Virus record (IMG/VR): IMGVR_UViG_3300045988_183652
Coordinates: 1 to 64,000 of that record
DNA length: 64,000 nucleotides
DNA from: a virus
Direction: 5' to 3' (one strand)
A program made the translations under genes and the position numbers. Positions 3,829-43,860 of this stretch are shown here, piece by piece. The notes under the pieces are model-generated. The model saw only the letters and a program-made list of their open reading frames with translations. It made no database searches and was not told where the DNA came from. Each line of letters begins with the position of its first letter. The first letter of the stretch is position 1.

Positions 3829-3921
3829 TGCTGCATCATAGTTGACATTTTAACATAGTCTATGGTATAGTACAAGTGTTCTATTCTACAAAGATGTACC
3901 AGAACATTTGTTCAAGATGCT

Positions 3922-3969
3922 TGTTATTTACCTGTGATTTCCGATATAAATAACAAGAATCTTGTTATT
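3922..3969 (+). promoter_or_regulatory. promoter with 21-bp perfect palindromic operator
   Basis: TTGTTA (-35, 3922) - 18 nt - TATAAA (-10, 3946) overlapping the perfect inverted repeat AATAACAAGA-a-TCTTGTTATT (3949-3969). A half-site copy GCTTGTTATTT lies at 3920. Confidence 0.5.
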
Positions 3970-4006
3970 GTGCTATACCCCGTTCAAAACATTAGGAGGT
4001 GAACCA

Positions 4007-4555
4007 TTGGACGGGCGAACCCATACTTTTGCCGGATACACGGCAGGATTACTTCTTGTGCAGGCACAAATCTTCGGAGCATTTGGACTTCCGGCGCCGG
4101 ACGGCATTCTTCCGTGTGTCGGAATGGTTGGACTGTCCATGGCGGGCTCCCTCGCGCCTGACATAGACCTTCCGCGTAGCAGAGCAGGACGACGCAATAG
4201 ACCCGTGTCCGCTGCCGTAAATGCTCTTTTTGGGCATAGGGGTATTACCCATGCGCCCTTCATTTGGGCGGCGCTGTACGCGGCCTTGAAGCTGCTCTTG
4301 GGTGCTGAATGGTTGACCTATATCCTTGCGTTTGTTATTGGTGGAGCAACTCATATTTTGCTCGACCTTTTCAATAAAGCCGGCGTTCCTTTGCTTTGGC
4401 CGATATCCCATCGCTTCTGGATATTCGGTATAAAGACGGACAGTGCTGCTGGTCACGCATTTTCTTTTGTATTGGCGTGTGTCGCAGTTCTTTGTACCAT
4501 CAATTTCTTCTACGAAGCCGGCGACTACTTAAAGGAGGCGATTTGGTTTGTTTGA
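4007..4555 (+). CDS. DUF457 / YdjM-like membrane-bound metal-dependent hydrolase
   Basis: TTG start at 4007 with AGGAGGT RBS 7 nt upstream (ORF track start 3962 is upstream of the RBS); polytopic hydrophobic protein with a THILLDLFNKAGVPLLWP motif typical of DUF457. Confidence 0.6.
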   Translation: MDGRTHTFAGYTAGLLLVQAQIFGAFGLPAPDGILPCVGMVGLSMAGSLAPDIDLPRSRAGRRNRPVSAAVNALFGHRGITHAPFIWAALYAALKLLLGAEWLTYILAFVIGGATHILLDLFNKAGVPLLWPISHRFWIFGIKTDSAAGHAFSFVLACVAVLCTINFFYEAGDYLKEAIWFV

Positions 4556-5258
4556 CGCTACAACAACAAAGTCTGAAAACGCACAATGGGGTGAGCGCAT
4601 GGCGACGTATATTGCGCTGATGCGGTGGAACGGCTACTCTGTGCAGGAAATTGCTGATACCTTTGGCATTTCCCGGCAGCAGGTGTATCTGCATCTGCAG
4701 AAGATTCCTTTTCCTAATGATAAGGCCAAAAGGTATCCCCGTCCCGCACTGAATGAAGAGCAGGTAAGGTCTGTGGTCGGTTTTTTTGTCGCGAATAAGG
4801 ACGCGCCCATATCCGCCGCTTCAGAGACAACGGGTATTCCTGTTGCGGATGTTGTGATGCTTTGCAACAATATCCGTGGCGCTCATTCGTGGTATTTCAG
4901 CGAGGGTTATCCTCTCATTGCGGATTATCTGAACAGGGAGGGAGTTACGCTTGATTATCTGGAACAGATGGCTGGCGTTCAGGGACTCGCACAGTATGTT
5001 TTTTCCACATACCCTTACAAGGAGATGCCGAAGGCTCGTGCTGCTGCGGTAGCCGCAGTAATTGACGTTCCCGCAGACAAGCTGATGGAGGTGGCTGTTG
5101 CGTCCGGAAATATGGCCACAGGTGTGGCAACATCGGATGAAATGGCATTGGTCATCGGCTCAGTAACCGGACGCGAAGCGAACTCGCGGCTCTTTTTCCG
5201 TGGACGCCGTATCAAACCTTCTTTCTCTGCAACTGGAGGTGGTTCTTGTGGTGAATAA
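4548..5258 (+). CDS. hypothetical protein with putative HTH (YSVQEIADTFGISRQQVYLHL)
   Basis: TTG start with AAAGGAGG RBS 9 nt upstream; overlaps the stop of the upstream gene by 8 nt (operon). Confidence 0.5.
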   Translation: MFDATTTKSENAQWGERMATYIALMRWNGYSVQEIADTFGISRQQVYLHLQKIPFPNDKAKRYPRPALNEEQVRSVVGFFVANKDAPISAASETTGIPVADVVMLCNNIRGAHSWYFSEGYPLIADYLNREGVTLDYLEQMAGVQGLAQYVFSTYPYKEMPKARAAAVAAVIDVPADKLMEVAVASGNMATGVATSDEMALVIGSVTGREANSRLFFRGRRIKPSFSATGGGSCGE

Positions 5259-5781
5259 ATCTGAGCCTGACCTCCAGAGCGATATCGTCGCCGATACTCG
5301 CGATTATCCTGAAGCTCTGCAGCGCCTCACGATGAAGGGAATCTTGATGGCCGGTGCCATTGTGGTTATCCTCATTGCAACGCTTTGCCTGCAGAAGTCC
5401 GAATTGAAGGCAATGCTTCCCTTTGCCGGCGTTATCCTCTTGCTGGCAGGATATGTTGTCTATTCTGCCCTACACTTGCGAACAGAATGGCAGAATGGGG
5501 ACATCGTGTGTCATATTGCTTTGTGCCGCTCTGTGCGGTCTCGGTCATGGCCACGGGACAGCAAAGAGGTTGTTTTTGTAACAGGGGAAGACGAAGGTCA
5601 AGAGGCCCATGTGTTTAATCTTCCTGACCGCAAGAACAAAGACCTGTATCCCGGCTTTAAGTACACCATCTATGTTCGTGCAAGAGATAATACGCATCTC
5701 TTGGCCTACAAAGAAATCTATGTGCCTTCCGATGCGAAGGACACAGAAGAAGTCAAGTCGGAGCTTTCTTCAGAAAAGTGA
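5200..5781 (+). CDS. hypothetical membrane protein
   Basis: ORF with two predicted TM helices. The true start is probably downstream, at GTG ~5250 or ATG 5332, because the 5' end overlaps the previous gene. Followed by a terminator. Confidence 0.4.
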   Translation: MDAVSNLLSLQLEVVLVVNKSEPDLQSDIVADTRDYPEALQRLTMKGILMAGAIVVILIATLCLQKSELKAMLPFAGVILLLAGYVVYSALHLRTEWQNGDIVCHIALCRSVRSRSWPRDSKEVVFVTGEDEGQEAHVFNLPDRKNKDLYPGFKYTIYVRARDNTHLLAYKEIYVPSDAKDTEEVKSELSSEK

Positions 5782-5782
5782 A

Positions 5783-5850
5783 AAAAGCCGGCCTACGGGC
5801 CGGTTTTTTGCGTTTAGAAGAGGCCTTGCCTTGTGGCAAGACCTCTTTCG
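5783..5850. terminator. two back-to-back terminator hairpins between convergent genes
   Basis: AAAAAAGCCGGCC-tacg-GGCCGGTTTTTT (5783-5812) and GAGGCCTTGCC-ttgt-GGCAAGACCTC (5817-5848). Confidence 0.6.
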
Positions 5851-5861
5851 TGTTGTGAAAG

Positions 5862-6308
5862 TTAATTGAAAAAGAAGGGCCTTCCGATTTCTGCATCCTC
5901 CTGAGGTTCAGACTCTTCCGGAGTAAAGGCGTTTTCCGGCGTATTGGCCTCGTTCACAAGGCCATCATCGCTGTCCTCGTCTTCTGTGGCTTCCGCTGCA
6001 ACAGGGGTCACGCCCCAGTTGAGAATAGCCTCATCCTCCTCGGACAGTGCAATACGCTGCCTTTCAGCGGTATCGCGGATTTTCTTGACCATTTTTTCGC
6101 GGAAGTTTTTCATGGCGGACTGGATACGTGTCGCGGCCTGTTCATCTACAACGATAGCAGGCTTTTTACGGCTTTTTGCCGATACCGTAAAGGCGTTATC
6201 CTTTGCAGCGATATCTAACATCGTATTGATGTCTGCGACTGCTTTTAGTCCGTCTGAGACCTGCTGGAGTGCCTGCTGCTGCTTGGAATCACTGATAATT
6301 GCGGGCAT
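5862..6308 (-). CDS. hypothetical acidic protein
   Basis: 148-aa ORF, last gene of the minus-strand operon 9853->5862. Confidence 0.45.
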   Translation of the reverse strand: MPAIISDSKQQQALQQVSDGLKAVADINTMLDIAAKDNAFTVSAKSRKKPAIVVDEQAATRIQSAMKNFREKMVKKIRDTAERQRIALSEEDEAILNWGVTPVAAEATEDEDSDDGLVNEANTPENAFTPEESEPQEDAEIGRPFFFN

Positions 6309-6331
6309 GATTTATCTCTCCTTTTCTTTTT

Positions 6332-7018
6332 TTAGTTAGCGAGTGCGGTATCTGTCTCAGTATCGGCGCCTTCAATGACCGCGCTCATATCTGCGAGGTA
6401 GTAAACATCCGCTGCCTTGTCGTAGTTGATGTGTGCGATAAAGCTGCCAAGGTCTTCGCCCGTAGCCTTATCACATACGCGGATTGTCAGCGTTTCATTG
6501 CCGTTATATCCATCCACAAGAATGGAGTCCTGCCACGCAACACCGAATTTGTTTACATCGCGGTAGGTCGCGTCAATTCCCAGCACATCGTCATACCAAG
6601 TAAAGGCTGCAATACTGTTGGTATCCATTGTGTAAAAATCTTGCCGCTTGACCGTTGCGTATTCTTCCGGCATAAAGTATAGGGGATATGTCGTACGCTC
6701 GCACTTGATATAGAACGCCGCACCGTTGGGGTCGTTGCAGGTGGGATTCAAGTAGATGGCGTTGACGCCGGCATCCTTGTCGCCCATACCCAGCGTGACC
6801 TCATAGCCGGATTCCAGCGTACAGCTCAACTTGATGTCGTTGCGGTACTTGCCATCCCCGATATATCCTTGGGAGTCCTCTTCACCGTCGGGGATGGGTT
6901 CGGGATTTTCGAGGTTGTACTGAGGTTCGCCGGTGTCCTCATCTTTATCTTTCTTTCCACAGCCCACAATGGTCAGAGCCATAAGCACGGCCAGAGTCAA
7001 TGCGATGAACTTCTTCAT
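6332..7018 (-). CDS. lipoprotein
   Basis: Signal peptide MKKFIALTLAVLMALTIVGC with lipobox (IVGC) then a K/D/E-rich linker. Confidence 0.6.
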   Translation of the reverse strand: MKKFIALTLAVLMALTIVGCGKKDKDEDTGEPQYNLENPEPIPDGEEDSQGYIGDGKYRNDIKLSCTLESGYEVTLGMGDKDAGVNAIYLNPTCNDPNGAAFYIKCERTTYPLYFMPEEYATVKRQDFYTMDTNSIAAFTWYDDVLGIDATYRDVNKFGVAWQDSILVDGYNGNETLTIRVCDKATGEDLGSFIAHINYDKAADVYYLADMSAVIEGADTETDTALAN

Positions 7019-7041
7019 ATAGGATTCCTCCTTACGGATTT

Positions 7042-8535
7042 TTACTGTACGGGGTTCGTGTTCTGAGGTGCGGTATCACCGCAGAGCACGCGGTCTACAA
7101 ATTGGCAGATGTTGAGCTGTGCGGCGCGTTCGGGAGTGTTTGCTTCCAGCTCCTCCAGTAGCTCCACGGTCGTAACCGTACCGCTGGTAAGTGTTGCATC
7201 TGCACCAGTGACCATGGCTGCGTCATACACGGTTGCAGCCTTTTCTGTCATACGGAATCTTACGATGGAGGGAACCATTTTTGCGATGCTAACATGGTTT
7301 TTCACATACTGTGTCAACTCGCCCTGCGGGATTGCTCCCAGCTTGGCATAGACATCAAACAGCAGCGTTCCGTCGGCGTTCAGGAGGTCGCTTACCACCG
7401 CATTCAGCTTAATGGTTTCATGCCTCCGGTTATGCTCGTCCTTATCGCTGATGGTGTACTCGATAGTGGGGTCATCCGCATAGAGTTCCTCGCGCAACGC
7501 GGGGTTGTTGTCGTCCACTGTGCGATTGATGGTAATGACAGCCTCGCGTCCAAACATGAGGAAGCTGGTATCCGTTTCCCACAGATAATCTCGCACATCT
7601 TCCTCATCAGTGGCCAGCCAAGGGTTGACGGCAACTGATGTTCCTCCTGTGCTGTTTACACTGAACTGGTCGATGCGGAGAATTTGACCGGCGCCGATAT
7701 ATTCAGTCGCGTATTTTCCCACCACAGTGGATGCCATGTCCACATTACACAGCTTGGAGCCAATGGCCACAGCGCAGTTGTAGACGTCGGCAGGAATGGT
7801 TGCTACGGCAAGATTATCCTTAGAGAACTGCGTTCCCGGCAGTATATCGTCTGTGACCTGAATCACCTGCACGCTATCTCCATGAACGTAGGACGTGGAA
7901 ACTGTCGTTCCATCAGAACGCTGGAGCGTCGTGGGGTACTGAAACCCGATAGGTGCAGAGCGGTTGGCCAGCGTGGTGTAGACGCAGAAGACAATAGCGG
8001 CACCGGCAATGATAGCTGCAGCAGGATAAACGACCTTTTTCAGAAACCGCTTCCCTTTACTTACAGGGACCATGCTCGTTCCTGCCGCATCACTTGCGGA
8101 TACGTTCTTTTCCGCCGGTTTGCGCTTCTGCTGCTTTTTCTGCTCCTTTTCCCGCAGTCTCTCGGCCTTCAGCCGTTCTTCCTCCTGCCGCTTGAGCTCG
8201 CGCCAGTCGGGGGTTTCTGCCGTGCCTGAGCTGGGCGTGTCGGTGCTGTGAGTGGGGGATTCCGTGCTCCGAGAGGCTTCCTTTTTCTCAGGTGCGGAAG
8301 GGGGCGCGTCGTCGCCGCCGTTTGCAGCGGGAACAACGATAGTCGTCTGCTTCTTTGCGCTACCAACGCGGCCAGTCAGCTCTCCGTCCTCCCTGCACTC
8401 GTAGAAGCGACTATTGGCGTCATCGAAATATCCGGTACAGATATTCCCAGCACCCAGCTTAAACTGGCGCTTAGGCAGCTTTTTGATTTGTGCGACTTCC
8501 TCAGCAGTGAAAGTCCATGTGTTATCTCTCGCCAT
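7042..8535 (-). CDS. membrane-anchored hypothetical protein (single mid-protein TM, K/E-rich charged region)
   Basis: 497-aa ORF in operon; coiled-coil-like KRQEEERLKAERLREKEQKK segment then TM helix AAAIIAGAAIVFCVY. Confidence 0.5.
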   Translation of the reverse strand: MARDNTWTFTAEEVAQIKKLPKRQFKLGAGNICTGYFDDANSRFYECREDGELTGRVGSAKKQTTIVVPAANGGDDAPPSAPEKKEASRSTESPTHSTDTPSSGTAETPDWRELKRQEEERLKAERLREKEQKKQQKRKPAEKNVSASDAAGTSMVPVSKGKRFLKKVVYPAAAIIAGAAIVFCVYTTLANRSAPIGFQYPTTLQRSDGTTVSTSYVHGDSVQVIQVTDDILPGTQFSKDNLAVATIPADVYNCAVAIGSKLCNVDMASTVVGKYATEYIGAGQILRIDQFSVNSTGGTSVAVNPWLATDEEDVRDYLWETDTSFLMFGREAVITINRTVDDNNPALREELYADDPTIEYTISDKDEHNRRHETIKLNAVVSDLLNADGTLLFDVYAKLGAIPQGELTQYVKNHVSIAKMVPSIVRFRMTEKAATVYDAAMVTGADATLTSGTVTTVELLEELEANTPERAAQLNICQFVDRVLCGDTAPQNTNPVQ

Positions 8536-8559
8536 ATGGCATCATCTTCCTTTCTCTGT

Positions 8560-9015
8560 TTAGCCCTCAAATCCCAATGCTTTCATCACCGCTATTGCAG
8601 CGATAATTGGGATAATATACATAAGAAGTTTTGATGGGCTTGAACTTACATCAGCTTCTGAAAAGACTTTGCCGTTATCGTAGTAGAGAGTAATTTTCAA
8701 AGGCGGCATACTATTTGAAGTCACAACCGTTTTTGTGTGCAAGCCATCAAGCTCATATTCGTATGTGGCTACATAATTTCTTGCACCAGAGCTCTTTTCG
8801 TGATAACGACATTTTACCTGTGTTGCAGAAAGCATATGCCCGCTTTCTTTTGCCTTCGCTATTTTTTTCTCGCCTCTCGAAAAAATGATTCCTTTTTTGT
8901 ATAAAACGATTTCAATAGCAAAAACAACGATAGCAGTAAAAACTCCTATCCAGACAGCAGGGTCATACGCCAGCAACTGTTCCCACGCTTCTTTGAGTCC
9001 AATTTGATTGTTCAT
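8560..9015 (-). CDS. small membrane protein
   Basis: 151-aa ORF with an N-proximal TM helix; in operon. Confidence 0.45.
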   Translation of the reverse strand: MNNQIGLKEAWEQLLAYDPAVWIGVFTAIVVFAIEIVLYKKGIIFSRGEKKIAKAKESGHMLSATQVKCRYHEKSSGARNYVATYEYELDGLHTKTVVTSNSMPPLKITLYYDNGKVFSEADVSSSPSKLLMYIIPIIAAIAVMKALGFEG

Positions 9016-9033
9016 ACAACTCTCCCAATTCTA

Positions 9034-9465
9034 TCAACCTACAGTCTCATCAGCCTTGGCTGAAACAGGTTTTTTTAAGAATGGGTTCGGTCCGGGGAAT
9101 TCGCCCTTGTACTCTGTGGCGTCAAAAGCAAGAATTGCAAGGACGATGAGCTGGAAGAAAATCATCCAAATAAAAAGTTTAGGGGTGTGGTAGCTGGTGC
9201 GACCTTGATATTCGACGCCAAGCATAGGTATGAACTTCACCCATATGATAATCCACATGATGAGGTTTACACCCGGTATGAGCATCAGCCATATATAGCG
9301 AAGGTTCCCAAAAACGGAATAGAATAGGCAAATGATGTTATACACGGGGATAAGCCCCGCCCAAATGGGATACTTGGCCTTTTTAAGAATAAAGGCAAGA
9401 AATATGCAGGTGGCAACGGTTCGGCCTACAATCCAAAGCAGGCGAAGAGTTTCATAGTGATTCAT
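9034..9465 (-). CDS. polytopic membrane protein
   Basis: 143-aa ORF with ~4 hydrophobic helices. Confidence 0.45.
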   Translation of the reverse strand: MNHYETLRLLWIVGRTVATCIFLAFILKKAKYPIWAGLIPVYNIICLFYSVFGNLRYIWLMLIPGVNLIMWIIIWVKFIPMLGVEYQGRTSYHTPKLFIWMIFFQLIVLAILAFDATEYKGEFPGPNPFLKKPVSAKADETVG

Positions 9466-9520
9466 AGTTTTGTCCTTTCAGTGTGGAGGCGTAGTTGACA
9501 GCCTCAGTGGGTTTAGTAGG

Positions 9521-9853
9521 TTAAATGATGCTCGTGAGCCAACCGAGAACAGTGTAGAAGATGCTCGGTACGAGGAAATAGAGTCCGGCCAGAACAGCCA
9601 GAATGGTCAATACAACAGACAGTCCCTTTTTCACTACTTTCCGCGCCGCATACAGTGCGGCAATGAGAATCAGCAGACTCGCGATTTGTGCGGGGGTAAG
9701 GGTCAATACCCAAACTTTGATACGTTCAAAAATATTGACAAGTTTTTCAAGCATAAAATACCTCCGTTGGCAGGTTCCCGCCACAGCCACATTCCCTAAA
9801 GACCGTGGCGGGACTTGCTTTTCTACATTTTCTATATTACCATATTCGAACAT
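9521..9853 (-). CDS. small membrane protein
   Basis: 110-aa ORF with two TM helices; first gene downstream of the minus-strand promoter at 9833-9862. Confidence 0.4.
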   Translation of the reverse strand: MFEYGNIENVEKQVPPRSLGNVAVAGTCQRRYFMLEKLVNIFERIKVWVLTLTPAQIASLLILIAALYAARKVVKKGLSVVLTILAVLAGLYFLVPSIFYTVLGWLTSII

Positions 9854-9910
9854 AATGTCAAGCGAAAAGCACCATGTAGACTTGACATTATTTTATATTC
9901 GTGTTATAGT
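9833..9910. promoter_or_regulatory. divergent family-2 promoter pair
   Basis: Minus strand: TTGACA-ttatgttcgaatatgg-TAATAT (reads toward 9853). Plus strand: TTGACA (9882) - ttattttatattcgtgt - TATAGT (9905), reads toward the nuclease/flotillin operon. Confidence 0.5.
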
Positions 9911-9952
9911 AAAATTGCGATAGAAACATAAAAGACTCGAAAGGAAAGCGTT

Positions 9953-10741
9953 ATGGTAAAGAATAATAACAAGAAAAACAACGGCACGAATGCCTTGCGA
10001 GGGCTCCTCGCTTTCCTTGTTGCCCTTGCTGTGTTTCTCGGAGTGGAACTCATTCCGCAGCTCACAGAGAACCTTGGCTCCGACAACCATCTGTCGTATA
10101 CAGAAGCGTCTGATATCTACGAGGGGAGTTATAAGAGCCGGCTTTCGTTAGACGACATTGCTCCATTTGACGGGGAGCCATATATCGTTGTAAACGGTAA
10201 TGTTCCATTTTTTACAGAAGCTGATATAACCACAGAGCCGTTCGAATTGTTTTCCGAGTTGGACGACCTTGGCCGCTGCGGGACTGCCTACGCAAACGTG
10301 TGTCAAGAGTTGATGCCCACGGAAAATCGAGGGTCTATCGGCATGGTAAAGCCATCTGGCTGGCAGCTTGCCAAATATGATTTTGTGGACGGCAAGTATC
10401 TTTATAACCGCTGCCATCTGCTGGGCTACCAACTCACAGGCGAGAATGCCAACGTCAAAAACCTCATCACCGGAACCCGTTACCTCAATGTAACTGGTAT
10501 GCTTCCGTTTGAAAATGAAATTGCTGATTACGTTCACGAGACAAACAACCATGTGCTTTATCGTGTGACTCCTGTTTTTGAAGGAGATAACCTTGTGGCG
10601 AACGGCGTCCTGATGGAAGCTCTCTCCGTAGAGGATGATACCATTGAGTTCTGTGTGTTTTGCTATAATGTGCAGCCCGGTGTCAAGATTGATTACGGCA
10701 CCGGCCTCAACTGGGCGGATGCGGACTACTCCGCTGATTAA
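9953..10741 (+). CDS. EndA-like DNA-entry / DNA-RNA non-specific endonuclease (Endonuclease_NS_2-type), membrane-anchored
   Basis: N-terminal TM anchor, then NRCHLLGYQLTGENANVKNLITGTRYLNV...VLYRVTPVFEG. This matches the DRGH...N.xP.T..LN...YRVTPVY signature of EndA-family nucleases. Confidence 0.65.
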   Translation: MVKNNNKKNNGTNALRGLLAFLVALAVFLGVELIPQLTENLGSDNHLSYTEASDIYEGSYKSRLSLDDIAPFDGEPYIVVNGNVPFFTEADITTEPFELFSELDDLGRCGTAYANVCQELMPTENRGSIGMVKPSGWQLAKYDFVDGKYLYNRCHLLGYQLTGENANVKNLITGTRYLNVTGMLPFENEIADYVHETNNHVLYRVTPVFEGDNLVANGVLMEALSVEDDTIEFCVFCYNVQPGVKIDYGTGLNWADADYSAD

Positions 10742-10764
10742 ATAGAACAAAAGGAGAAAGAACT

Positions 10765-12201
10765 ATGTTTGACCTGCTCTTTGGGAACAAGGCTGTTCTC
10801 ATTCCCGCAATTATCGTGATTGCGGTCCTCATCATCTGTATTCTGGGGTACATTAAGGCGCCGCCCGATATGGCATATATCGTCTCAGGTCTCCGTAAGA
10901 AGCCCAAAATCCTTATCGGTCGTGCCGGCGTTCGCGTTCCGTTTCTGGAGCGCGTCGATAAGCTAATTGTCCGTCAGATTTCCGTGGACATCAAATCCGA
11001 TGGCTACATTCCCACACTGGACTTCATCGGCGTTGATGTGGATGCTGTCGCTAAGGTCCGTGTTCGGACGGATGATGAGGGCATTAAGCTGGCTATGCGG
11101 AACTTTCTGAACATCACCGATGCCCGTGGCTTCGAGCAGGCGATTTCGGACTCTCTGCAGGGAAACATGAGAGAGATTATCGGTACTATAACGCTCAAGG
11201 AAATCTGCAATGACCGTAAGAAATTCGGTGATGAAATCCAGTCAAAGGCGCAGGTTGACATGAATGCGTTGGGTATCGAGATTATCTCCTGTAATATCCA
11301 GCGCGTGACCGACGAGAAGGGCCTTATCAATGCTCTGGGTCAGGATAATATGAGTCAAATCCAGAAAAATGCTTCTATCGCCAAGGCCGAAGCGGAGCGC
11401 GATATCCAGATTGCTCAGGCGGAGGCGGCTCGTCAGGCGAACGAGGCTCAGGTCGCATCCGATACACAGATTTCTATTCGTAAGACCGAACTGGCCGTGA
11501 AGCAGGCCGAGCTGAAGGAGACCTCCGACATCAAGAAGGCTGCTGCCGATGCTGCCTATAAGATTGAGGAACAGAAGCAGCGCCGGAGCCTCGATATTGC
11601 ATCTACCGATGCCGACATTGCGAAGCGCGAGAAGGAAGCAGAACTGGCCGAGCGTGAAATTACGCTGCAGGAGCGTCGGTTGGATGCTGATATTCGCAAG
11701 AAGGCAGATGCCGATAAGTACGCTGCCGAAAAGAAGGCCGAAGCAGAGCTGTACGCCCGCAAGCAGGAAGCCGAGGCCAAGCGCTTCGAGCAGGAGCAGA
11801 TTGCCGAAGGTATCAAGGCCGTCGGTGCCGCAGAAGCCGAGGCTATCAAGGCCAAGGCTCTGGCCGAAGCGGAAGGTATCGACCGTAAGGCTGAGGCCAT
11901 GAAGAAGTACGGTGAAGCCGCAGTGGTCGAGATGATTATGAACGCACTGCCCGAAATTGCCAAGAACGTGGCCGCGCCTCTCACTAATGTGGATTCCATC
12001 ACCATGTACGGCGAGGGTAACAGTACGAAGCTGATTGAGGACATCGTTTCCTCTACCACTCAGGTCTCCAACGGTATGCTGAACGGTCTGGGTATCGACC
12101 TGCGGAGCCTGCTGGCAGGTTTTGTCGGTGGTAAGGTTGCAGTTCCCGCATCTGCTTCCGGTGTTGAGCCTACCGCTACCGCTGAGGGCGATGCCGAGTA
12201 A
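10765..12201 (+). CDS. flotillin-like SPFH/band-7 protein
   Basis: AAGGAG RBS; N-terminal TM hairpin + SPFH domain + long EA-rich coiled coil ([22 protein letters not shown]...) + C-terminal flotillin domain, like Bacillus FloT/YuaG. Confidence 0.8.
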
Positions 12202-12242
12202 AAACAATATCCCGCCGTAGGCACTCCCTGCGGCGGGTATAC

Positions 12243-12327
12243 GGAGAGGTGGCCGAGCGGTTGAAGGCACCGGTCTTGAAAACCGGCGATGCGAAAGCAT
12301 CCGTGGGTTCGAATCCCACTCTCTCCG
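12243..12327 (+). tRNA. tRNA-Ser (anticodon TGA), CCA encoded (12328-12330)
   Basis: Cloverleaf with long variable arm (GGCGATGCGAAAGCATCC), anticodon loop cTTGAAa, T-arm GTGGGTTCGAATCCCAC. Confidence 0.85.
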
Positions 12328-12343
12328 CCAAAAGTAAAAAATA

Positions 12344-12477
12344 AGTACGGACGGTATAACCGGAATTAACGCCTGTGGAGATGCATGGTCATCGTGGAAG
12401 CAGGAATACTCTGTTAGCTGGTCATTCATGTGAGAGATGATGTCAGCACTTTTAGGGAACTGAATATGCCTGTGTCG
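12344..12477 (+). ncRNA. conserved ~135-nt array-leader / putative scaffold RNA element, copy A
   Basis: AGTACGGACGGTATAACCGGAATTAACGCCTGTGGAGATGCATGG...GGAATACTCTGTT..GCTGG..GTGAGAG...GGGAACTGAATA, shared at ~85% with copies at 43010, 44159, 45545 and more divergently 12711. Starts immediately 3' of tRNA-Ser. Confidence 0.5.
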
Positions 12478-12635
12478 GGTGTATGAAACCCTGAAAAAGC
12501 AGTGGTGTATACCATCAACGCAGTCCCATTAGAGTGCCGGAGAGGTATATAAAGCCCCGAAATAGCAGGGTTGTATACCATGTTGACTACGGGAATCACA
12601 GTATACAGGGCCTTAAAACAATAGGGTTATACACC
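12478..12635 (+). CRISPR. CRISPR-like mini-array A (3 degenerate 36-nt repeats, spacers 30 and 21 nt)
   Basis: Repeats at 12478-12513, 12544-12579 and 12601-12635, consensus GGTATAyAnnnCCCnGAAAnAnCAGGGTTGTATACC. Each repeat is an imperfect hairpin (GGTATACA...TGTATACC). Confidence 0.45.
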
Positions 12636-12685
12636 ACTCACGCATTCCTGTTGCTTGTGAGCACAAGATGCCAAATTTTGAAAAA

Positions 12686-12704
12686 GTGTGCAATGATTGC
12701 ATAC
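12686..12704. promoter_or_regulatory. palindrome GTGTGCAATgATTGCAtAC upstream of leader copy B
   Basis: A perfect version, GTGTGCAATGATTGCACAC, sits at 42971-42989, ~20 nt upstream of leader copy C. Confidence 0.35.
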
Positions 12705-12710
12705 TTAAAA

Positions 12711-12850
12711 AGTACGGATGGTATAACCGGAATTAACGCCTGTGGAGACGAACTCCGTCGCTAAAGCAGGAACTTGCCATGAGCTGAATTCTGCGTGAGA
12801 GGCGGTGCAACGCCGAGGTGGGAGTACCTTGGGGGAACATTAGCAAGCGC
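12711..12850 (+). ncRNA. conserved array-leader element, divergent solo copy B (no array)
   Basis: AGTACGGATGGTATAACCGGAATTAACGCCTGTGGAGACGAACTCCGTCGC...GTGAGAGGCGGTGCAACGCC...GGGGGAAC. It has the same architecture as the other copies but different internal hairpins. Confidence 0.4.
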
Positions 12851-12899
12851 ACAAAAATCAAAAATCGGTGGAATGGCATGGAAGGCAGGTGACTTGTAA

Positions 12900-13298
12900 A
12901 TGGCAGACTATTTCAAAGTTGTTTACTCGCGGGAGCTTTCCGCTGAATATAACCCTCGCTACATCGTGATACAGCCCAAGACTGGCGCGGTTTTAGATGA
13001 TGCCCAAGGCTTCGGCTATACAAGCCGCGAGAAGGCGGCAAAGGCATACACCTACAAGAAGATGCCGCATCCCGAACAGCGGTCTCTGGCGGCCCGCAAA
13101 CGCCGCGTAGAGAAGTGGTGTCTGGAACACCTTGATGTGGTAGATGGTTATGCTGACATCTGCTTACAGCATATGAAGGCATCGGGAGATGGACGTATCA
13201 GTATGAGTTCTGCTGTTGTCTCCCGTTATCTGAAGGACTGCGGATACGATAATCTGCCGTTCTCGGCACAGGACTTTATCCGCTACTGTAAAACTTAA
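12900..13298 (+). CDS. hypothetical protein
   Basis: 132-aa ORF, first gene after leader copy B. Confidence 0.4.
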   Translation: MADYFKVVYSRELSAEYNPRYIVIQPKTGAVLDDAQGFGYTSREKAAKAYTYKKMPHPEQRSLAARKRRVEKWCLEHLDVVDGYADICLQHMKASGDGRISMSSAVVSRYLKDCGYDNLPFSAQDFIRYCKT

Positions 13299-13320
13299 AT
13301 TTGGGGTGAGGTGAAAGGAC

Positions 13321-15501
13321 ATGAAAAACACCATATTGGGGACGGTGCGCTTTAATGACATCGGGGCGTACAAGAATGAGTGGGCGGCGAGAAGCCGTGA
13401 ATGGCGCTTTGAAAAGGCCCGACAGGAGGAAACCCACATTATCAGAGAGAATGACAGAGACGATGCAACGCTCTTTTCTGGACTCACAGACCTGTCCAGT
13501 CTCTCGCGAGATAATAGTGACACCAATGAGAGATGGTGGCGGAAACGCATTGAGGACTACCTCAAGAACCTTTCTGAGTTCATCGACTACTGTAAGACCT
13601 ATGAGCAGCCTGCCAACATATATAGCATTTATGAGGGCATTGGTATGGTCGTCGGCCTCGGCAGTCGTAGGTTCTTTCTCTACCAGCCGGACTCTCTGGT
13701 GGCGGAGTATGTGCCGGTCAAGGACTATTCCGCAATGTCCGTGAGCGAGATGCGAGCCCTCGCAACGCACGGCGCTTCATCGACGCTGCCGGCATCCGTG
13801 CCTGAGTCTCTTTCGGTCTCTCAGGTGCGTGAAGGCCTGTCCGACCGTGAGGCGGAGCTGAACGCTCTCAAAGCCAATATCGAAGATACCAAGAACGGAA
13901 CCAGTGATGAACTCCGCGCCCTCAAGGAAGAGGTCGAGCGTGCCATGGCCGCCTTGGAGCAGAAAAAGGAAAAACTGATGGCAGAGCTGTCCGCCAAACG
14001 CGAGGCTCTGGAGGAACAGGTAGAAATGATGAACAATCAGATTTACCTGTTGGAATCTCAGATTTATGCTATCCGCTGCTACATGGGTGAGACAATCAAC
14101 TTTACCCGTATCCGCACTGGCCGGAACGCACCGGAAAAGGAGCCGGTCGTCCTGTTCCAGAAGCTCCGTTTTCTCGATGAAGAGATGGGGCGTCTTGCTT
14201 CCATTTACAACATGAAAGAAAGCAAGCTGAAGTATTTCGAGGAGTTTCTCGCAGCGTCTCCTGTTGCGCTGGATACCTTTGCTCCCAGTGAGAAGTGCGT
14301 GGCACTGGTTCGTCTCAGCAAGACCGGCAAGCATTTCTTTGGACATGAGGCGTGGAGCAATATGCTGGATAGCTATAATATCTACCACGGGAACACCATC
14401 GGTATCACTATCCGAAACGGAGAAAATGTCTATATCGGTTGGACTGACCCGGAGGAAGTCCATGTGACAGATGACTTCATTATGGAAGTAAATCCAAAAG
14501 ATTTCCGCGTCAATACGGAGTATATCGGGCAGGAGGATGAATACCAGCGGAAGCAGCGTGTCAAAGAGGAACGTTCACAGGCACGAAGTATGGTCGTGGA
14601 AATGGTTTCCAGAATTTTCCTGTTCAATATCCTACAGGGTGTGGTGGATAGCTCCAACATCCTTTCTCTGCCGGCTGGCGTCAAAATCTCCAAGTCCTCC
14701 GAGTATGTCGTGTTTTCCATGGCTGACCGCTGGTTGACCGACAACCGCTACGGCAGCTTTGTGGACATTGTGGAGCGATGCAACAAGCCTGACGCAAAGA
14801 AGGGTGATAGTATCTTGACCGTTCTTTCTTTGACTCCGGAGAGAGAATACAGGTATAGGCCTTACTGGAATGACCGTGGCAGGGGAGACCGCAACCGTAC
14901 CCACGACTGTTCCGTTGATGACTGCGCCATCTATCCCATCAATCTGGTGGAGTATGACGCACCGGAGCAGCGCACCTATTATCTCTTTAATGGCATTCGC
15001 TACTCCACATATGGCGATGGCAGTAATCTCACAGATGACGCTGAAATCATCGAAACTGTCATGGAGCCTAAGCCGCATTTCTTCGTATCTGTGGAGAAGG
15101 GCGAGTCCATAAACCGCCGTTGGTATGATGACGAGGGCAAGAAACGCGCCCGTTCCAATTTTGAGGTATTCCGCGACGAATACATCAACCTCACTTTTAT
15201 GAACTCCGAGTGGCTGACTTACGCCATCAACACCAAGAACCTTGGTGGATGGATTATCGGAGGTAAGTGCGTGGATTACGCCTATGGTATCAAGTACCTG
15301 AACGTGGCCCTGCAATACATCCGCCAGCGCGAGGCATCCGAGAAAGAGCACATCGACCGCGCTTGCCCCTGCTTTACGGAGAAGCACCCTTCTTGGATGG
15401 TAGACCTGTCCGAGTGGAAGCTCGCCAAAGATGTCCATAGTCTTCATTCCCGCAACGTATCGAAATTTGTGAGCTGGTATGCTCAGAAGGAGGCGTCCTA
15501 A
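13321..15501 (+). CDS. large hypothetical protein with central coiled coil
   Basis: 726-aa ORF; RBS GGTGAGGTGAAAGGAC upstream; coiled-coil segment (ELNALKANIEDTKNGTSDELRALKEEVERAMAALEQKKEKLMAELSAKREALEEQVEMMNNQIYLLESQIYAIRCYM). Confidence 0.5.
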   Translation: MKNTILGTVRFNDIGAYKNEWAARSREWRFEKARQEETHIIRENDRDDATLFSGLTDLSSLSRDNSDTNERWWRKRIEDYLKNLSEFIDYCKTYEQPANIYSIYEGIGMVVGLGSRRFFLYQPDSLVAEYVPVKDYSAMSVSEMRALATHGASSTLPASVPESLSVSQVREGLSDREAELNALKANIEDTKNGTSDELRALKEEVERAMAALEQKKEKLMAELSAKREALEEQVEMMNNQIYLLESQIYAIRCYMGETINFTRIRTGRNAPEKEPVVLFQKLRFLDEEMGRLASIYNMKESKLKYFEEFLAASPVALDTFAPSEKCVALVRLSKTGKHFFGHEAWSNMLDSYNIYHGNTIGITIRNGENVYIGWTDPEEVHVTDDFIMEVNPKDFRVNTEYIGQEDEYQRKQRVKEERSQARSMVVEMVSRIFLFNILQGVVDSSNILSLPAGVKISKSSEYVVFSMADRWLTDNRYGSFVDIVERCNKPDAKKGDSILTVLSLTPEREYRYRPYWNDRGRGDRNRTHDCSVDDCAIYPINLVEYDAPEQRTYYLFNGIRYSTYGDGSNLTDDAEIIETVMEPKPHFFVSVEKGESINRRWYDDEGKKRARSNFEVFRDEYINLTFMNSEWLTYAINTKNLGGWIIGGKCVDYAYGIKYLNVALQYIRQREASEKEHIDRACPCFTEKHPSWMVDLSEWKLAKDVHSLHSRNVSKFVSWYAQKEAS

Positions 15502-22888: not shown

Positions 22889-22959
22889 GATGTTTTCTCC
22901 TTTCTCCCAGCCTGTGATAAGGACTTACGGGAAACCAAAATAAAATGTATATATAGAAA

Positions 22960-23095
22960 AAGACAATCACTGCCCGAAAAGGGAAGTGATTGTCTGAATT
23001 TGTGATGTGACTTGAAAAACGGAGATAAAACTCCTTATAAAAATATCTTCGTAATTATACTATTATACTACCACGTTTCGCTATTTTGTCAACAG
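22960..23095 (-). promoter_or_regulatory. promoter + leader-hairpin cassette M1 (family-1)
   Basis: Minus strand: TTGACA-N16-TAGTATAATAGTATAAT, then GGAGTTTTATCTCC hairpin, then the hairpin GACAATCACTTCCC-ttttc-GGGCAGTGATTGTC + U-rich tract before the RBS. Homologous cassettes are M2-M6. Confidence 0.55.
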
Positions 23096-23107
23096 CAGCA
23101 ACGTAAA

Positions 23108-23140
23108 AAAAGAAGCTCCCGAAGGAGCTTCTTTTGAAAT
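23108..23140 (-). terminator. terminator of operon 2
   Basis: GAAGCTCC-cgaa-GGAGCTTC hairpin with T7 on minus strand. Confidence 0.6.
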
Positions 23141-28661: not shown

Positions 28662-28889
28662 TTTATTCTCCTTTCTCTAAATCTGCTTGTAAGGCCCAAG
28701 TGTGATAGACAGGTTGTAGATATAATTACCACAACGCACACATTCGTCGTTCTTTCCCCACAAGCCGCTTGCTTTCATACCGCGCACGCTGCCTGTATAA
28801 TGGATAGACGGGTGTGTATCGCACTCGTGCTGGGTAAGCTCCTTTTGTTTCATGCGTTTTCTCCTTTCGTTTTTATTTGTTCTGAATAT

Positions 28890-29030
28890 ATAAAAAGACA
28901 GTCGTTCCCAAATGAGAACAACTGTCTTGAATATGATGATGTGACTGAAAACGGAGATAAATCTCCTTATAAAAATATCTTCGTAATTATACTACTATAC
29001 TACCACAATTCTTTATAATGTCAACGGAAA
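28890..29030 (-). promoter_or_regulatory. promoter + leader-hairpin cassette M2
   Basis: Minus strand: TTGACATTATAAAGAATTGTGGTAGTATAGTAGTATAATTACG; GGAGATTTATCTCC; AAGACAGTTGTTCTC-atttg-GGAACGACTGTCTT + UUUUUAUAUAU. Confidence 0.55.
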
Positions 29031-29039
29031 CGGTACAAA

Positions 29040-29075
29040 AAAAAGAAGCCCCCGAAAGAGCTTCTTTTTAAGTTA
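29040..29075. terminator. bidirectional terminator
   Basis: GAAGCCCCC-gaaa-GAGCTTC hairpin flanked by A8/T5. Confidence 0.55.
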
Positions 29076-32822: not shown

Positions 32823-32884
32823 ATTTTTCTCCTTTCTCCCAGCCTGTGATAAGGTCTTACGGGAACAAAAATGTAGTGAATATA

Positions 32885-33025
32885 TAAAAAGACAGTCGCT
32901 CTCAAAAGAGAACAACTGTCTTGAATGTGATGATGTGACTGAAAACGGAGACAAAGCTCCTTATAAAAATATCTTCGTAATTATACTACTATACTACCAC
33001 ATTTCCTTATAATGTCAACGGTTTC
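32885..33025 (-). promoter_or_regulatory. promoter + leader-hairpin cassette M3
   Basis: TTGACA...TAGTATAGTAGTATAATTACG; GGAGCTTTGTCTCC; AAGACAGTTGTTCTC-ttttg-AGAGCGACTGTCTT + U-tract. Confidence 0.55.
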
Positions 33026-33036
33026 GACGCAAAAGA

Positions 33037-34056: not shown

Positions 34057-34326
34057 TTACATCTCGCCATCCTCGGCAGCGGTTATAATGCCGAATCTGA
34101 GGTTGTTGTTGATGTCGTAGATACTTAATCCGCTATCAAAGTCCTTGCGGAGCTGCGTCGCAGCGGCCTCTACGGAGTCTTCGCCGTACTCAAACGTCTC
34201 GGACTCGACGCAGGCCGCCACGAGTTCCTTCAGCTTTTCGCGGGAAGTCGTCGCAGAAACCAGACGCATGGAGTCTGTTGCTTTCCAAGCGTCACAGGCA
34301 AACACGATGAAGATAGGATTACTCAT
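34057..34326 (-). CDS. small hypothetical protein
   Basis: Start set to ATG 34326 (MSNPIFIVFACDAW...) with AAAGGAG RBS. Confidence 0.4.
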   Translation of the reverse strand: MSNPIFIVFACDAWKATDSMRLVSATTSREKLKELVAACVESETFEYGEDSVEAAATQLRKDFDSGLSIYDINNNLRFGIITAAEDGEM

Positions 34327-35875: not shown

Positions 35876-35919
35876 TATGTTTTCTCCTTTCTTATTGTGT
35901 TTGTAATGTAAAAAAATAT

Positions 35920-36058
35920 ATAAAAAGACAGCTATCCCTGTTTTGGGATAACTGTCTTGAATACTTGGTGTGACTGGAAGCGGAGATAAGTCTCCTTATA
36001 AAAATATCTTCGTAATTATACTATTATACTACCACAATTATTTATAATGTCAACAATA
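35920..36058 (-). promoter_or_regulatory. promoter + leader-hairpin cassette M4
   Basis: TTGACATTATAAATAATTGTGGTAGTATAATAGTATAATTACG; GGAGACTTATCTCC; AAGACAGTTATCCC-aaaac-AGGGATAGCTGTCTT + U-tract. Confidence 0.55.
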
Positions 36059-36062
36059 GCAG

Positions 36063-36095
36063 AGAAAAAAGAGGCGGCTTTCGCCTGCCTCTTTT
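36063..36095. terminator. bidirectional terminator
   Basis: AGAGGCGG-ctttcgcc-TGCCTCT + T7. Confidence 0.55.
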
Positions 36096-42970: not shown

Positions 42971-42989
42971 GTGTGCAATGATTGCACAC
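42971..42989. promoter_or_regulatory. perfect palindrome GTGTGCAATgATTGCACAC
   Basis: 9+1+9 inverted repeat 22 nt after the TnpB-like stop and 20 nt before leader copy C; a homolog sits at 12686. Confidence 0.4.
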
Positions 42990-43853: not shown

Positions 43854-43860
43854 TGGGCCG

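Follow-up and report, generated by a model that had tools for sequence, protein, structure and literature searches.

A serine tRNA gene followed, across a short gap, by a leader-like element that runs into a miniature repeat array, and then by a second copy of this element that has no array, raises the question of what such elements are and what they do beside a tRNA. The sequence-only reading of the 64,000-nucleotide stretch analyzed here (hereafter, the window) took them for leaders and placed the left border of an accessory region at the tRNA. Our analysis points in another direction: with a probability of about 0.72, we regard them as guide-RNA genes, two of a set of five, belonging to a nuclease-dead, TnpB-derived system of CRISPR-like character that resides on a large mobile element and would silence rival or hitch-hiking elements. 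The features next to the tRNA are the following.

12243-12330, plus strand: tRNA-Ser(TGA) with an encoded CCA (ARAGORN; Rfam tRNA model, 59.6 bits)
12343-12477, plus strand: scaffold A, 135 nt, omegaRNA-derived (the "leader" of the sequence-only reading)
12478-12665, plus strand: mini-array A, with three repeats, two spacers, then a terminal guide or flank
12478-12513, 12544-12579 and 12600-12635, plus strand: array A repeats, 36 nt each, the distal one degenerate
12514-12543 (30 nt) and 12580-12599 (20 nt), plus strand: array A spacers
12636-12665, plus strand: terminal guide or flank of array A
12686-12704, no strand assigned: palindrome GTGTGCAATGATTGCAtAC, preceding copy B
12710-12836, plus strand: scaffold B, divergent and truncated, without an array, within the 5' UTR of ORF 12900-13298

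tRNA-Ser(TGA) and the adjacent unit

The tRNA ends at 12330, as originally described, and the conserved copy A indeed runs into a three-repeat array; the A-rich gap between the tRNA and scaffold A, however, is 12 nt long rather than 13. Rfam searches of the region, at the gathering threshold and with E up to 10, returned the tRNA and chance matches, and nothing else. Array A is the same in the related contigs L028 and L057 and carries another spacer set in 9 further strains, and in all 12 of the related loci that cover the site, tRNA-Ser(TGA) lies directly 5' of a scaffold unit. The earlier suggestion that the tRNA and the leader RNA are co-transcribed, or that the leader RNA is processed from the tRNA transcript, is plausible: no terminator-like site was found between the tRNA and unit A, and co-transcription fits the conservation of the tRNA directly upstream in these 12 loci. 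Thus, tRNA-Ser is probably the partner of unit A in both transcription and 5' processing, such that processing of the tRNA would free the 5' end of the unit. To the left of the tRNA lie genes for a topoisomerase, a SAF-domain protein, a nuclease, and a flotillin.

A tRNA gene at such a position can also be read as an attL, with the block of scaffold, array and palindrome forming the edge of an inserted island. The common use of tRNA genes as integration sites, the serine recombinase at 49158-50735, and the mostly unknown functions of the genes to the right all speak for this possibility, but no signature of a border emerged. A direct repeat of the tRNA 3' end, the attR that had been proposed as a check, is absent from the window, although the far border could lie outside it; the GC profile is flat, without a step; and the comparison of strains turned up no relative with an empty site, all related contigs being collinear past the tRNA with 97% identity (L057 spans 5253-15432 and L063 spans 1978-12518). 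Nor do host-type genes end at the tRNA, as had been thought, given that the left-hand genes named above are likewise typical of mobile elements, and a promoter module of the same family is found far to the right, at 57478. All this makes an integration border at the tRNA very improbable indeed.

The scaffold family and its arrays

Further members of the scaffold family are clustered around a gene for a TnpB homologue in the right-hand part of the window, 30 kb from the unit beside the tRNA.

41890-42948, plus strand: gene for a TnpB homologue of 352 aa, predicted to be nuclease-dead (TldR-like; Pfam, alignment to ISDra2 TnpB)
42971-42989, no strand assigned: perfect palindrome GTGTGCAATGATTGCACAC, located 3' of the tldR stop codon and 5' of scaffold C
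43010-43197, plus strand: unit C, with scaffold at 43010-43143, a degenerate repeat at 43144-43177 and guide ATTCGTAATTATAGTTC from 43178
44159-44487, plus strand: unit D, scaffold and three repeats
45545-46148, plus strand: unit E, scaffold and seven repeats, a mosaic of two repeat subtypes

The window holds five copies of the 39-nt scaffold core, all of them on the plus strand (12343, 12710, 43010, 44159 and 45545), against none in shuffled sequences, and a profile search of the window recovers exactly these five copies together with 14 repeats. In a unit, a scaffold of about 135 nt, closed by a long-range helix (GUACGG...CCUGUG), is followed by a 36-nt hairpin repeat and this repeat by a guide; most units repeat the module of hairpin plus guide 1 to 7 times, the spacers being mostly 30 nt long. 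Each array is preceded by a scaffold copy, which continues directly into the first repeat, and the repeat pairs with itself. The initial impression that the elements are repeated and RNA-like holds, and the differences between the internal hairpins of copies A and B are real compensatory changes that form a series, with GAUG/CAUC in A, GAUG/CGUC in C-E, and GACG/CGUC in B. Covariation is sparse among the closely related scaffold copies (3 of 45 pairs), and single-sequence folding of A and B gave stabilities not above those of shuffled controls (z = -0.65 and -0.33).

The identity of the scaffold is revealed by comparison with mobile TnpB genes. A 22-nt core is located directly 3' of tnpB in IS copies of Methanosarcinales; the motifs ACGCCTGTGGAGA, GAAGCAGGAAT and GTGAGAGG are shared with the omegaRNA that belongs to the intact TnpB of L018, and the close variants GCCTGTGGAG, GAAGCAGGAAT and GTGAGAGG are found downstream of another intact TnpB, P0005. 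Judged by these shared elements, the scaffold and the omegaRNA scaffold of IS605-family TnpB are homologous, so that what was called a leader is an omegaRNA-type scaffold and not a CRISPR leader.

Copy B was correctly described as divergent and arrayless. It starts 74 nt past the last repeat of array A (about 75 in the first description), matches the scaffold profile at positions 3-115 only, without a repeat, and lacks both the 3' strand of the closing helix and the repeat hairpin. Kept at the same position in L028, L057, L044 and L063, copy B is a degenerated scaffold residing in a 5' UTR. The palindrome in front of it and the perfect form in front of copy C are both where they were first noticed, and these are the only two such sites in the window, with none in shuffles. 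The first, 12686-12704, is a hairpin (GTGTGCAATGATTGCATAC) with an 8-bp stem, a 3-nt loop and a T-run on the minus strand, and overlaps a weak promoter-like site, TTGAAA-16-CATACT (12678-12705); the second receives a terminator-like call on the minus strand. In about 28 loci, the palindrome lies 36-39 nt ahead of the scaffold core. An A-run and a T-run border it in at least 10 distinct contexts, and it is also found at gene ends with no scaffold close by. These flanks and the scaffold-free gene ends make a terminator or insulator hairpin more likely than the previously envisaged binding site for the TnpB-like protein. An operator, as the overlap with the promoter-like site at copy B might suggest, was set aside on the strength of the same flanks.

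Across the related contigs, we counted 115 arrays with 139 distinct spacers, and 113 of these arrays have a scaffold fused to them; the remaining two are at locus edges. There are 5-8 scaffold units per element (7-8 per related contig), each array is very short, and alignments of strains with 97-98% identity break exactly at the arrays; spacers turn over between strains while the scaffold is strongly conserved. Orthologous arrays have the distal unit in common and differ at the scaffold-proximal end, and the distal repeats are degenerate. Unit C is found 3' of tldR in every strain, its scaffold beginning 61 nt past the stop codon in the window, and in the clade with 87% identity, a partial scaffold is present in the tldR 5' UTR. 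Interleaved with the units are fast-evolving small proteins, namely, ORF191, a J-domain-like ORF, and DUF1064; searches with ORF191 and DUF1064 yielded no informative relatives of solved structure.

The TnpB homologue, its probable targets, and the weighing of explanations

The 352-aa protein, encoded by the sole TnpB-like gene of the window, matches Pfam OrfB_IS605 (4.5e-25) and HTH_OrfB_IS605 (2.2e-17) and aligns to residues 5-326 of ISDra2 TnpB (E = 2e-49); the PADLOC models of Cas12f and Cas12u match it as well. In place of the RuvC-I aspartate (D191 equivalent), it has a serine, GIDVG having become GISLG, and it stops about 50 residues early, without the zinc finger CxxC...CxxC and the RuvC-III aspartate. 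Clade members P0001-P0003, 348-352 aa long, have no precomputed match to the TNB domain, and the window protein covers only the first 24 of the 60 positions of the TNB profile, below the cut-off. By these substitutions and losses, the protein is RuvC-inactive and predicted to be unable to cut. It is 51% identical to the intact TnpB in L018 (2442-3560) and 51-56% identical to active IS-borne TnpBs of the same population, whereas in the phage and plasmid collections, no relative with at least 60% identity was found, the best among the matches listed being about 40%. Orthologues with 87% and 78% protein identity keep the length of 348-352 aa, and the former is only 81.5% identical at the DNA level, which points to purifying selection. 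The tldR neighbors, a tRNA cluster and a RecG-like gene, are constant in all strains, with no match to a Y1 transposase among the neighbors scanned. The link between the elements and a TnpB-like protein was correctly suspected at the outset. Some related strains also have an intact TnpB as an IS copy, and this IS-borne protein could in principle share the guide RNAs.

Spacer matches in two integrase-bearing elements define 16 protospacers. All 16 have a G at -1, and of the 15 inside transcribed regions, 14 are on the sense strand; hence, the TAM deduced from these alignments is a single G directly 5' of the protospacer, with a sense-strand bias. Fourteen spacers match L072 between 3537 and 6730, within a small integrative element that encodes a rep-like gene, an FtsK-like gene and a tyrosine integrase, with no match in the host flanks, and two match an xis-like gene beside the integrase in MT835962, where a scaffold-like sequence lies ahead of that gene. 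Guide C agrees with a promoter core of L072 at 15 of 17 positions, with a G at -1. The window itself has five paralogous promoter-core sites, one of which is the following; the other four are at 28980, 32974, 36009 and 57478.

23048-23059, minus strand: promoter-core site TATAATTACGAA

Guide C matches these five cores over 12 contiguous nucleotides (12 of the first 13 guide positions), which is not significant by count alone, and the TAM position holds a T. Self-repression of the five promoters by guide C was downgraded as a candidate because the sites lack the G and the L072 promoter matches better. For the 14 spacers of the window, there was no match of 14 nt or longer in the window; in related DNA, 590 kb in all, anchored 11-12-mers were as frequent as chance predicts (about 27 expected); PLSDB plasmids gave 0 matches; and six exact 20-24-mers searched in IMG/VR found the arrays themselves and nothing else. 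Thus, in the window, related DNA, PLSDB and IMG/VR, no targets were found for the spacers of the window's own arrays A, D and E.

In the mechanism that we envisage, the 352-aa TnpB homologue would bind the guide RNAs, a pairing that we infer, and would be directed to spacer-matching DNA with a G immediately 5'. Because the protein is predicted to be unable to cut, it would act by blocking, that is, by obstructing transcription and, possibly, replication once bound to DNA. The known targets are small integrase-bearing elements, hit in their promoter, leader, rep-like, FtsK-like and xis-like genes, and silencing of rival or hitch-hiking mobile elements appears to be the most likely function, with the element's own five homologous promoters, which lack the G, perhaps spared.

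Several other explanations could account for parts of these observations. Ordinary CRISPR arrays that have a true leader and rely on an active Cas nuclease and on Cas1-Cas2 from some other part of the element or from the host would be expected to show the polar turnover, the foreign protospacers with a PAM-like G, the repeats of 36 nt and the spacers of mostly 30 nt, the dead TnpB being incidental; moreover, the related contigs, of 130-190 kb, are covered in part. Nevertheless, this explanation is improbable: the supposed leader is homologous to TnpB omegaRNA scaffolds and precedes essentially every one of 7-8 units per contig, all with very short arrays, one unit is always 3' of tldR, and the sense-strand bias suits a transcription roadblock better than cleavage. 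No match to the adaptation genes cas1, cas2 or cas4 was found among the approximately 60 window ORFs scanned with Pfam or PADLOC; many small type V systems do without these genes. A more radical possibility, which we rate as unlikely but worth spelling out, is an independent, very recently born adaptive system in which the scaffold would serve both as the equivalent of a tracrRNA and as a "leader" for the insertion of 30-nt spacers without Cas1-Cas2, the inserter being the dead TnpB itself or ORF191, the J-domain-like ORF or DUF1064. If true, this would offer a living snapshot of the birth of a CRISPR array out of the guide RNA of a transposon, the effector being a DNA binder of 352 aa with a single-nucleotide TAM. 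A candidate relationship to Bacteroidetes Cas13b-like arrays was dropped given the TnpB gene, the sortases and the Firmicutes-like context.

Two further readings do without guides altogether. The scaffolds could be cis-acting 5'-UTR or leader RNAs that regulate downstream operons through protein binding or attenuation, as the location of copy B in the 5' UTR of ORF 12900, the partial scaffold ahead of tldR in the 87% clade and the scaffold-like sequence before the MT835962 xis-like gene might indicate; this is very unlikely as a general account, which would leave arrays, foreign protospacers and the TAM unexplained, and may hold for the arrayless copies only. Finally, active and intact IS copies from the same family are present in the population, copy B and the copies in 5' UTRs show clear degeneration, and folding energies are unremarkable, all of which is compatible with non-functional debris of IS200/IS605 right ends in which the terminal hairpin was tandemly duplicated. 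Debris, however, would hardly display a G at 16 of 16 protospacers, strand bias, spacers that cluster in one foreign element, a strongly conserved scaffold with spacers that turn over, and a truncated protein under purifying selection, and we judge this origin to be the most improbable one.

Relation to known systems and implications

Seen as a guide-directed silencing system, the locus is, by its predicted properties, a relative of TldR and of RuvC-inactive type V systems, with variant features. TldRs repress by blocking RNA polymerase (Wiegand et al.; fliC-, csrA- and oppF-associated clades), and RuvC-inactive type V systems silence by binding. The likeness to TldR extends to a TnpB homologue with a decayed RuvC site, a C-terminal truncation and no transposon context, an omegaRNA-like guide RNA (predicted here) encoded beside the gene, and putative TAM-flanked DNA targets that include a promoter, where, by analogy, a block of RNA polymerase would be expected. 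Known TldRs, however, have one fixed 9-16-nt guide, recognize a 5-nt TAM and target a single promoter, of the host or of a prophage, whereas here, there are 5-8 scaffold units, variable arrays with mostly 30-nt spacers, a single-G TAM and foreign integrative targets; the nearest single-guide dead relative, P0026, is without repeats.

With TranC and the small type V systems (V-U and Cas12f-like), array-acquiring TnpB lineages found in gut Firmicutes and their viruses, the locus shares the TnpB-sized effector, short arrays, 32-38-nt repeats, a compact PAM/TAM, a guide RNA derived from the right-end RNA and, for the approximately 60 ORFs scanned, the lack of adaptation-gene matches. TranC and Cas12f, however, are active nucleases with a separate, repeat-pairing tracrRNA, whereas the RuvC site here is inactive by sequence, the scaffold stands in cis with the first repeat before every array, and the repeat is a self-contained hairpin. 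The match between LaTranC and the 352-aa protein is weak (E = 2e-11 over 80 residues, against 2e-49 for ISDra2 TnpB). Like V-M Cas12m, V-C, the predicted V-O and V-P, Cas12b3 (on a conjugative plasmid) and plasmid-borne type IV systems, the system is mobile-borne and targets mobile elements, and RuvC-impaired type V and type IV systems also interfere without DNA cutting, via transcriptional silencing. The RuvC-impaired type V effectors, nevertheless, are much larger and evolutionarily older and have conventional single arrays, whereas the exaptation here appears to be very recent, since the effector is still 51-56% identical to active IS-borne TnpBs of the same population. Virus-borne mini-CRISPR arrays are comparable in being very short, carried by mobile elements and involved in inter-element conflict, but they borrow host Cas proteins and have no scaffold. 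In engineered tRNA-gRNA arrays, the guide is placed directly after a tRNA and is freed by tRNA processing; the tRNA-guide junction described here is natural and conserved in 12 loci, and would be the natural counterpart of such processing.

In the proposed system, two forms of TnpB domestication come together that were previously described apart: the TldR transcription factors, nuclease-dead and each with one fixed guide, and the array-acquiring, nuclease-active TranC and small Cas12. Because the protein remains so similar to the active IS copies, the steps from omegaRNA to array can be read directly: the terminal hairpin multiplies while the scaffold stays in cis. Should binding be confirmed, the small size of the protein (352 aa), its one-base TAM and its natural multiplex guide arrays would make it attractive as a compact programmable DNA binder. 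In the biology of these elements, RNA-guided silencing may be the weapon of a large element against small integrative elements that have the same promoter-leader module.

Scaffold units, the tRNA junction and the palindrome

Taken together, the scaffold units, a TnpB homologue and the spacer targets are most readily understood, with a probability of about 0.7, as a CRISPR-like system with which a large mobile element would silence small integrative elements, using a nuclease-dead derivative of TnpB. The 39-nt scaffold core occurs five times in the window, on the plus strand only, and a profile built from many copies recovered the same five and no more, with copy B spanning profile positions 3-115 only.

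Scaffold units A-E and the adjacent tRNA gene
12243-12330: tRNA-Ser(TGA), called by ARAGORN and Rfam
12343, plus strand: start of scaffold A, after a 12-nt A-rich gap from tRNA-Ser
12478-12513, 12544-12579, 12600-12635: the three 36-nt repeats of array A, with intervening spacers of 30 and 20 nt
12710, plus strand: start of scaffold B, truncated, array absent (0 repeats)
43010, plus strand: start of scaffold C, one degenerate repeat
44159, plus strand: start of scaffold D, 3 repeats
45545, plus strand: start of scaffold E, 7 repeats

The observations of the sequence-only reading are confirmed as a whole: the copy with a three-repeat array behind tRNA-Ser (the gap had been put at 13 nt), the divergent arrayless copy at 12710, which is truncated, the palindrome before it and its perfect form at 42971, and the compensatory hairpin differences between copies, which are genuine and form a series U:A to U:G to C:G at an internal hairpin pair. 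The interpretation fared less evenly. The RNA nature of the element, its linkage to the tRNA and its connection with a TnpB-like protein hold, whereas the terms leader, integration border and protein-binding palindrome give way to other explanations.

The supposed leader is, judging by homology, the omegaRNA guide-RNA scaffold of this TnpB family. The identification follows from the 22-nt core CCGGAATTAACGCCTGTGGAGA, whose matches in a genome collection were confined to multi-copy IS elements of Methanosarcinales/ANME-2 genomes, from the motifs ACGCCTGTGGAGA, GAAGCAGGAAT and GTGAGAGG directly after the intact 372-aa TnpB of some related strains, and from the close variants GCCTGTGGAG, GAAGCAGGAAT and GTGAGAGG that accompany P0005, the nearest intact TnpB in the protein database (56% identity). 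In all archaeal copies, conserved sequence extends for about 75 nt beyond the core and then gives way to unrelated flank, the position of a guide, and at the one archaeal locus with a detectable tnpB (L011), the core lies just 3' of that gene. The core is identical in the Methanosarcinales/ANME-2 MAG loci L003-L012, reflecting either cross-domain conservation of an omegaRNA motif or recent transfer. The consensus fold of 64 copies consists of a long-range closing helix (GUACGG/CCUGUG), four internal hairpins and the repeat as a separate hairpin; double changes affect 3 of its 45 pairs, a small number because the copies are closely related. No Rfam family was found for the scaffold. Single-sequence folding energies are no better than those of shuffles, and the case for an RNA is therefore one of homology and conservation, not thermodynamics.

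A hybrid unit in the related locus L023 (3327-3520), at the position of unit E, joins a canonical scaffold as its 5' half to the intact IS's right end as its 3' half. An array is absent there, and the unit directly abuts what lies behind array E in the window, which is evidence that scaffolds have recombined with IS right ends. Truncated scaffold-like sequences also lie directly upstream of the start of the TnpB homologue, in its 5' UTR, in the clade with 87% protein identity (L014 1149-1240, L022, L054), and before a targeted xis-like gene in MT835962 (2282-2360). They may be protein-binding elements, for autoregulation or as decoys, or remnants.

At each of the 12 related loci spanning this junction, tRNA-Ser directly precedes a scaffold unit, at a distance of 6-13 nt, and no terminator-like site was found between tRNA-Ser and scaffold A, which makes it plausible that the two are co-transcribed, with tRNA processing setting the 5' end of the guide RNA. 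No recognisable promoter for tRNA-Ser is present at 12202-12242; this interval contains, just after the flotillin stop, a GC-rich hairpin without a T-run (CCCGCCG...CGGCGGG, about 12211-12238), and the tRNA begins 4 nt later, an arrangement that suggests transcription by read-through of the flotillin operon.

No sign was found that the tRNA marks an integration border. The GC profile is flat, the relatives are all collinear across the junction, and no repeat of the tRNA-Ser 3' end (attR) was found within the window. Nor is mobile character confined to the right, where RecD2-like, YqaJ, SSB-like and serine recombinase genes are joined by weak relaxase-like TraI_2/HD (one) and sortase-like (two) matches: genes typical of mobile elements also lie on the left (topoisomerase, SAF-domain protein, nuclease, flotillin). 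A PemK/MazF-like toxin (34319-34897) in the operon of promoter module P4, and the weak TraI_2/HD relaxase-like match (52582-53517) and the SSB-like protein (56348-57331) in that of P5, support a plasmid or ICE nature of the whole window.

Copy B lacks the repeat and the 3' strand of the closing helix and lies in the 5' UTR of ORF 12900, where it is conserved in other strains; it is either a decaying copy or one reused as a cis element or trans scaffold. The palindrome GTGTGCAATGATTGCATAC, an 8-bp stem with a 3-nt loop, stands five nt before it and, in perfect form, at 42971-42989; these are the only two sites in the window (shuffled sequence, 0). Across strains, it precedes the scaffold core by 36-39 nt in about 28 loci at position C, and B copies by 22-23 nt. 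Further occurrences follow arrays or lie at gene ends distant from any scaffold. An A-run and a T-run nearly always flank it on opposite sides, and a terminator scan flagged the site at 42971 on the minus strand. From its flanks and its scaffold-free copies at gene ends, we read it as a probable terminator or insulator hairpin recurring in this element family, rather than as a protein-binding site; at B, where it also overlaps a weak promoter-like site, it might serve as an operator.

A truncated TnpB homologue and turnover of the arrays

Scaffold C begins 61 nt downstream of the stop (42948) of a TnpB-homologue ORF whose likely start codon is Met63 of the listed ORF, at 41890; this proximity, along with the scaffold homology, upholds the link to a TnpB-like protein. 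No further TnpB-like gene was found in the window. The 352-aa product carries OrfB_IS605 and HTH_OrfB_IS605 domains and aligns with residues 5-326 of ISDra2 TnpB (E = 2e-49). Alignments to ISDra2 TnpB and to an intact relative show that the first RuvC aspartate is replaced by serine (GIDVG to GISLG) and the RuvC glutamate retained; the chain ends too early to include the zinc finger or the third RuvC motif. The TNB profile matches the first 24 of its 60 positions only, under the Pfam cut-off, and the orthologues at 99%, 87% and 78% identity have no precomputed TNB match. These orthologues fall in the same length class (348-352 aa), and the 87% protein is encoded by DNA of just 81.5% identity, so that the truncated protein is evidently maintained by selection.

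Some related strains carry an intact IS605-family tnpB (L018 2373-3751, an insertion relative to window 40854-40861; also L049, L027 and L044), with 8 nt, GGTTCTGG, at both junctions. This IS copy, missing from the window, comes with its own omegaRNA and encodes a 372-aa TnpB with the DED residues and zinc finger that is 51% identical to the dead protein and likely represents its source lineage.

The core pattern retrieved 57 IMG/VR loci, most of them from a single sample; their contigs are 31-372 kb long, the larger ones with up to 7-8 scaffold units. A metagenome scan added ten further array-bearing loci. A repeat profile run over all collected sequence yielded 115 arrays with 139 distinct spacers, mostly of 30 nt; a scaffold directly precedes 113 of these arrays, the two exceptions being at locus edges. 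Arrays have 1-9 repeats (1-7, mode three, in the first 102), and the most degenerate repeats are the distal ones in arrays A, C and D. Identity between the window and related contigs is 97-98%, and the alignments break exactly at arrays (12518-12683, 43181-43243, 45705-46146). Orthologous arrays have the distal unit in common and differ in scaffold-proximal spacers, with about eleven spacer sets among strains at the tRNA-Ser position alone. Two repeat subtypes, GGTGTATGAGGCCCTGAAATGACAGGGGTGTATACC-like and GGTATACACCACCCGGAAATAACAGGGTTGTATACC-like, occur at 45678-46118, each usually tied to its own scaffold 3'-end variant. The mixture of both in array E and the reappearance of certain spacers in arrays at other positions point to probable exchange of repeat-spacer material between units. 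P0026, the nearest dead relative outside the clade, and P0005 each have a single scaffold and zero repeats, which identifies the arrays as an apparently derived feature of this small dead-TnpB clade.

Interleaved with units C-E (43143-45705) are ORF191, a 173-aa ORF with a J-domain fragment and DUF1064, which are 84-94% identical between strains with flanks at 97-98%; no informative homologues of these candidate accessory factors were found.

Spacer targets and guide C

A concatenate of 117 spacers matched one record in a phage collection, MT835962, from human faeces, where two spacers from different strains each match at 29/30 positions; the gene they hit is small and lies just ahead of a tyrosine integrase. 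The metagenome scan with the most recurrent spacer led to contig L072, where 14 distinct spacers, drawn from many strains, have matches within 3537-6730 (18-30 of about 30 positions). This stretch is a small integrative element located between the host genes SufBD and YchF; the host flanks have zero spacer matches. The window's own spacers in arrays A, D and E found no target in the window, the phage and plasmid collections or IMG/VR.

Elements matched by spacers or guide C
L072, 3537-6730: spacer-matched stretch of the small integrative element (promoter-leader module, 122-aa ORF, rep-like, FtsK/SpoIIIE-like, tyrosine integrase)
22950-23110, 28880-29040, 32880-33030, 35910-36070, 57380-57540, minus strand: five paralogous modules in the window (P1-P5)

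G stands immediately 5' of the protospacer in 16/16 cases, for which we calculate a chance probability of roughly 1e-9 at about 27% G. Within transcribed regions, 14 of 15 protospacers have sense-strand sequence; the guide would therefore pair with the template DNA strand and be unable to pair with mRNA. Roadblocks formed by dCas12a have their best effect on the template strand, and the bias would fit a Cas12/TnpB-type binder that blocks transcription.

The single guide behind scaffold C, ATTCGTAATTATAGTTC, is the conserved terminal unit of the C array at 11 loci; certain strains have one or two extra units between it and the scaffold. Its 12-nt matches in the window (23048, 28980, 32974, 36009, 57478), not significant by count alone, are the cores of the five minus-strand modules, each with promoter, leader and terminator-like hairpin. 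The order is an upstream terminator, GTTGACA-N16-TAGTAT, a conserved leader of about 100 nt with a GGAGAnnTAnCTCC hairpin, and the terminator-like hairpin AAGACAGTT...GACTGTCTTTTT ahead of the first gene; the modules look like operon starts under attenuator or antitermination control. A homologous module heads the L072 element (3500-3650; 72-78% identity over about 120 nt). Guide C matches it at 15/17 positions with G at -1, whereas T occupies -1 at all five window sites. From this single foreign example, we infer that guide C is directed against promoters of L072-type elements and that the large element's own promoters are spared because the TAM, G, is missing there. The module is the only similarity between the two elements, and its presence in both suggests that the small one is a hitch-hiker or satellite.

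Relation to TldR and array-bearing systems

TldRs, TnpB homologues that have lost their nuclease activity, repress promoters; each has a single guide of 9-16 nt next to its gene and uses a 5-nt TAM. Three clades (fliC, csrA, oppF) are characterised, and the accounts consulted mention no arrays. TnpB lineages have gained CRISPR arrays about 50 times. Arrays of TranC clades contain 3-20 repeats, each 32-38 nt long; these systems recognise compact PAMs and lack adaptation genes, but their proteins are active nucleases, and tracrRNA and crRNA are split. Several type V subtypes, some of them plasmid-borne, have lost RuvC activity and silence by binding. Those defining traits of TldRs that can be read from sequence are present in the window system, and it differs from TranC and type V in having neither an active nuclease nor a split tracrRNA. 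The RNA layout is unusual: every short array has its own scaffold in front, continuous with the first repeat, and one unit is joined to a tRNA. We found no description of such a system in the literature, and searches of annotated phage and plasmid collections gave no relative of at least 60% identity (the best among the matches listed has about 40%). Traits of TldR, array-bearing TnpB and RuvC-dead type V systems appear to be united here, with a 352-aa protein that is still similar in sequence to active IS copies.
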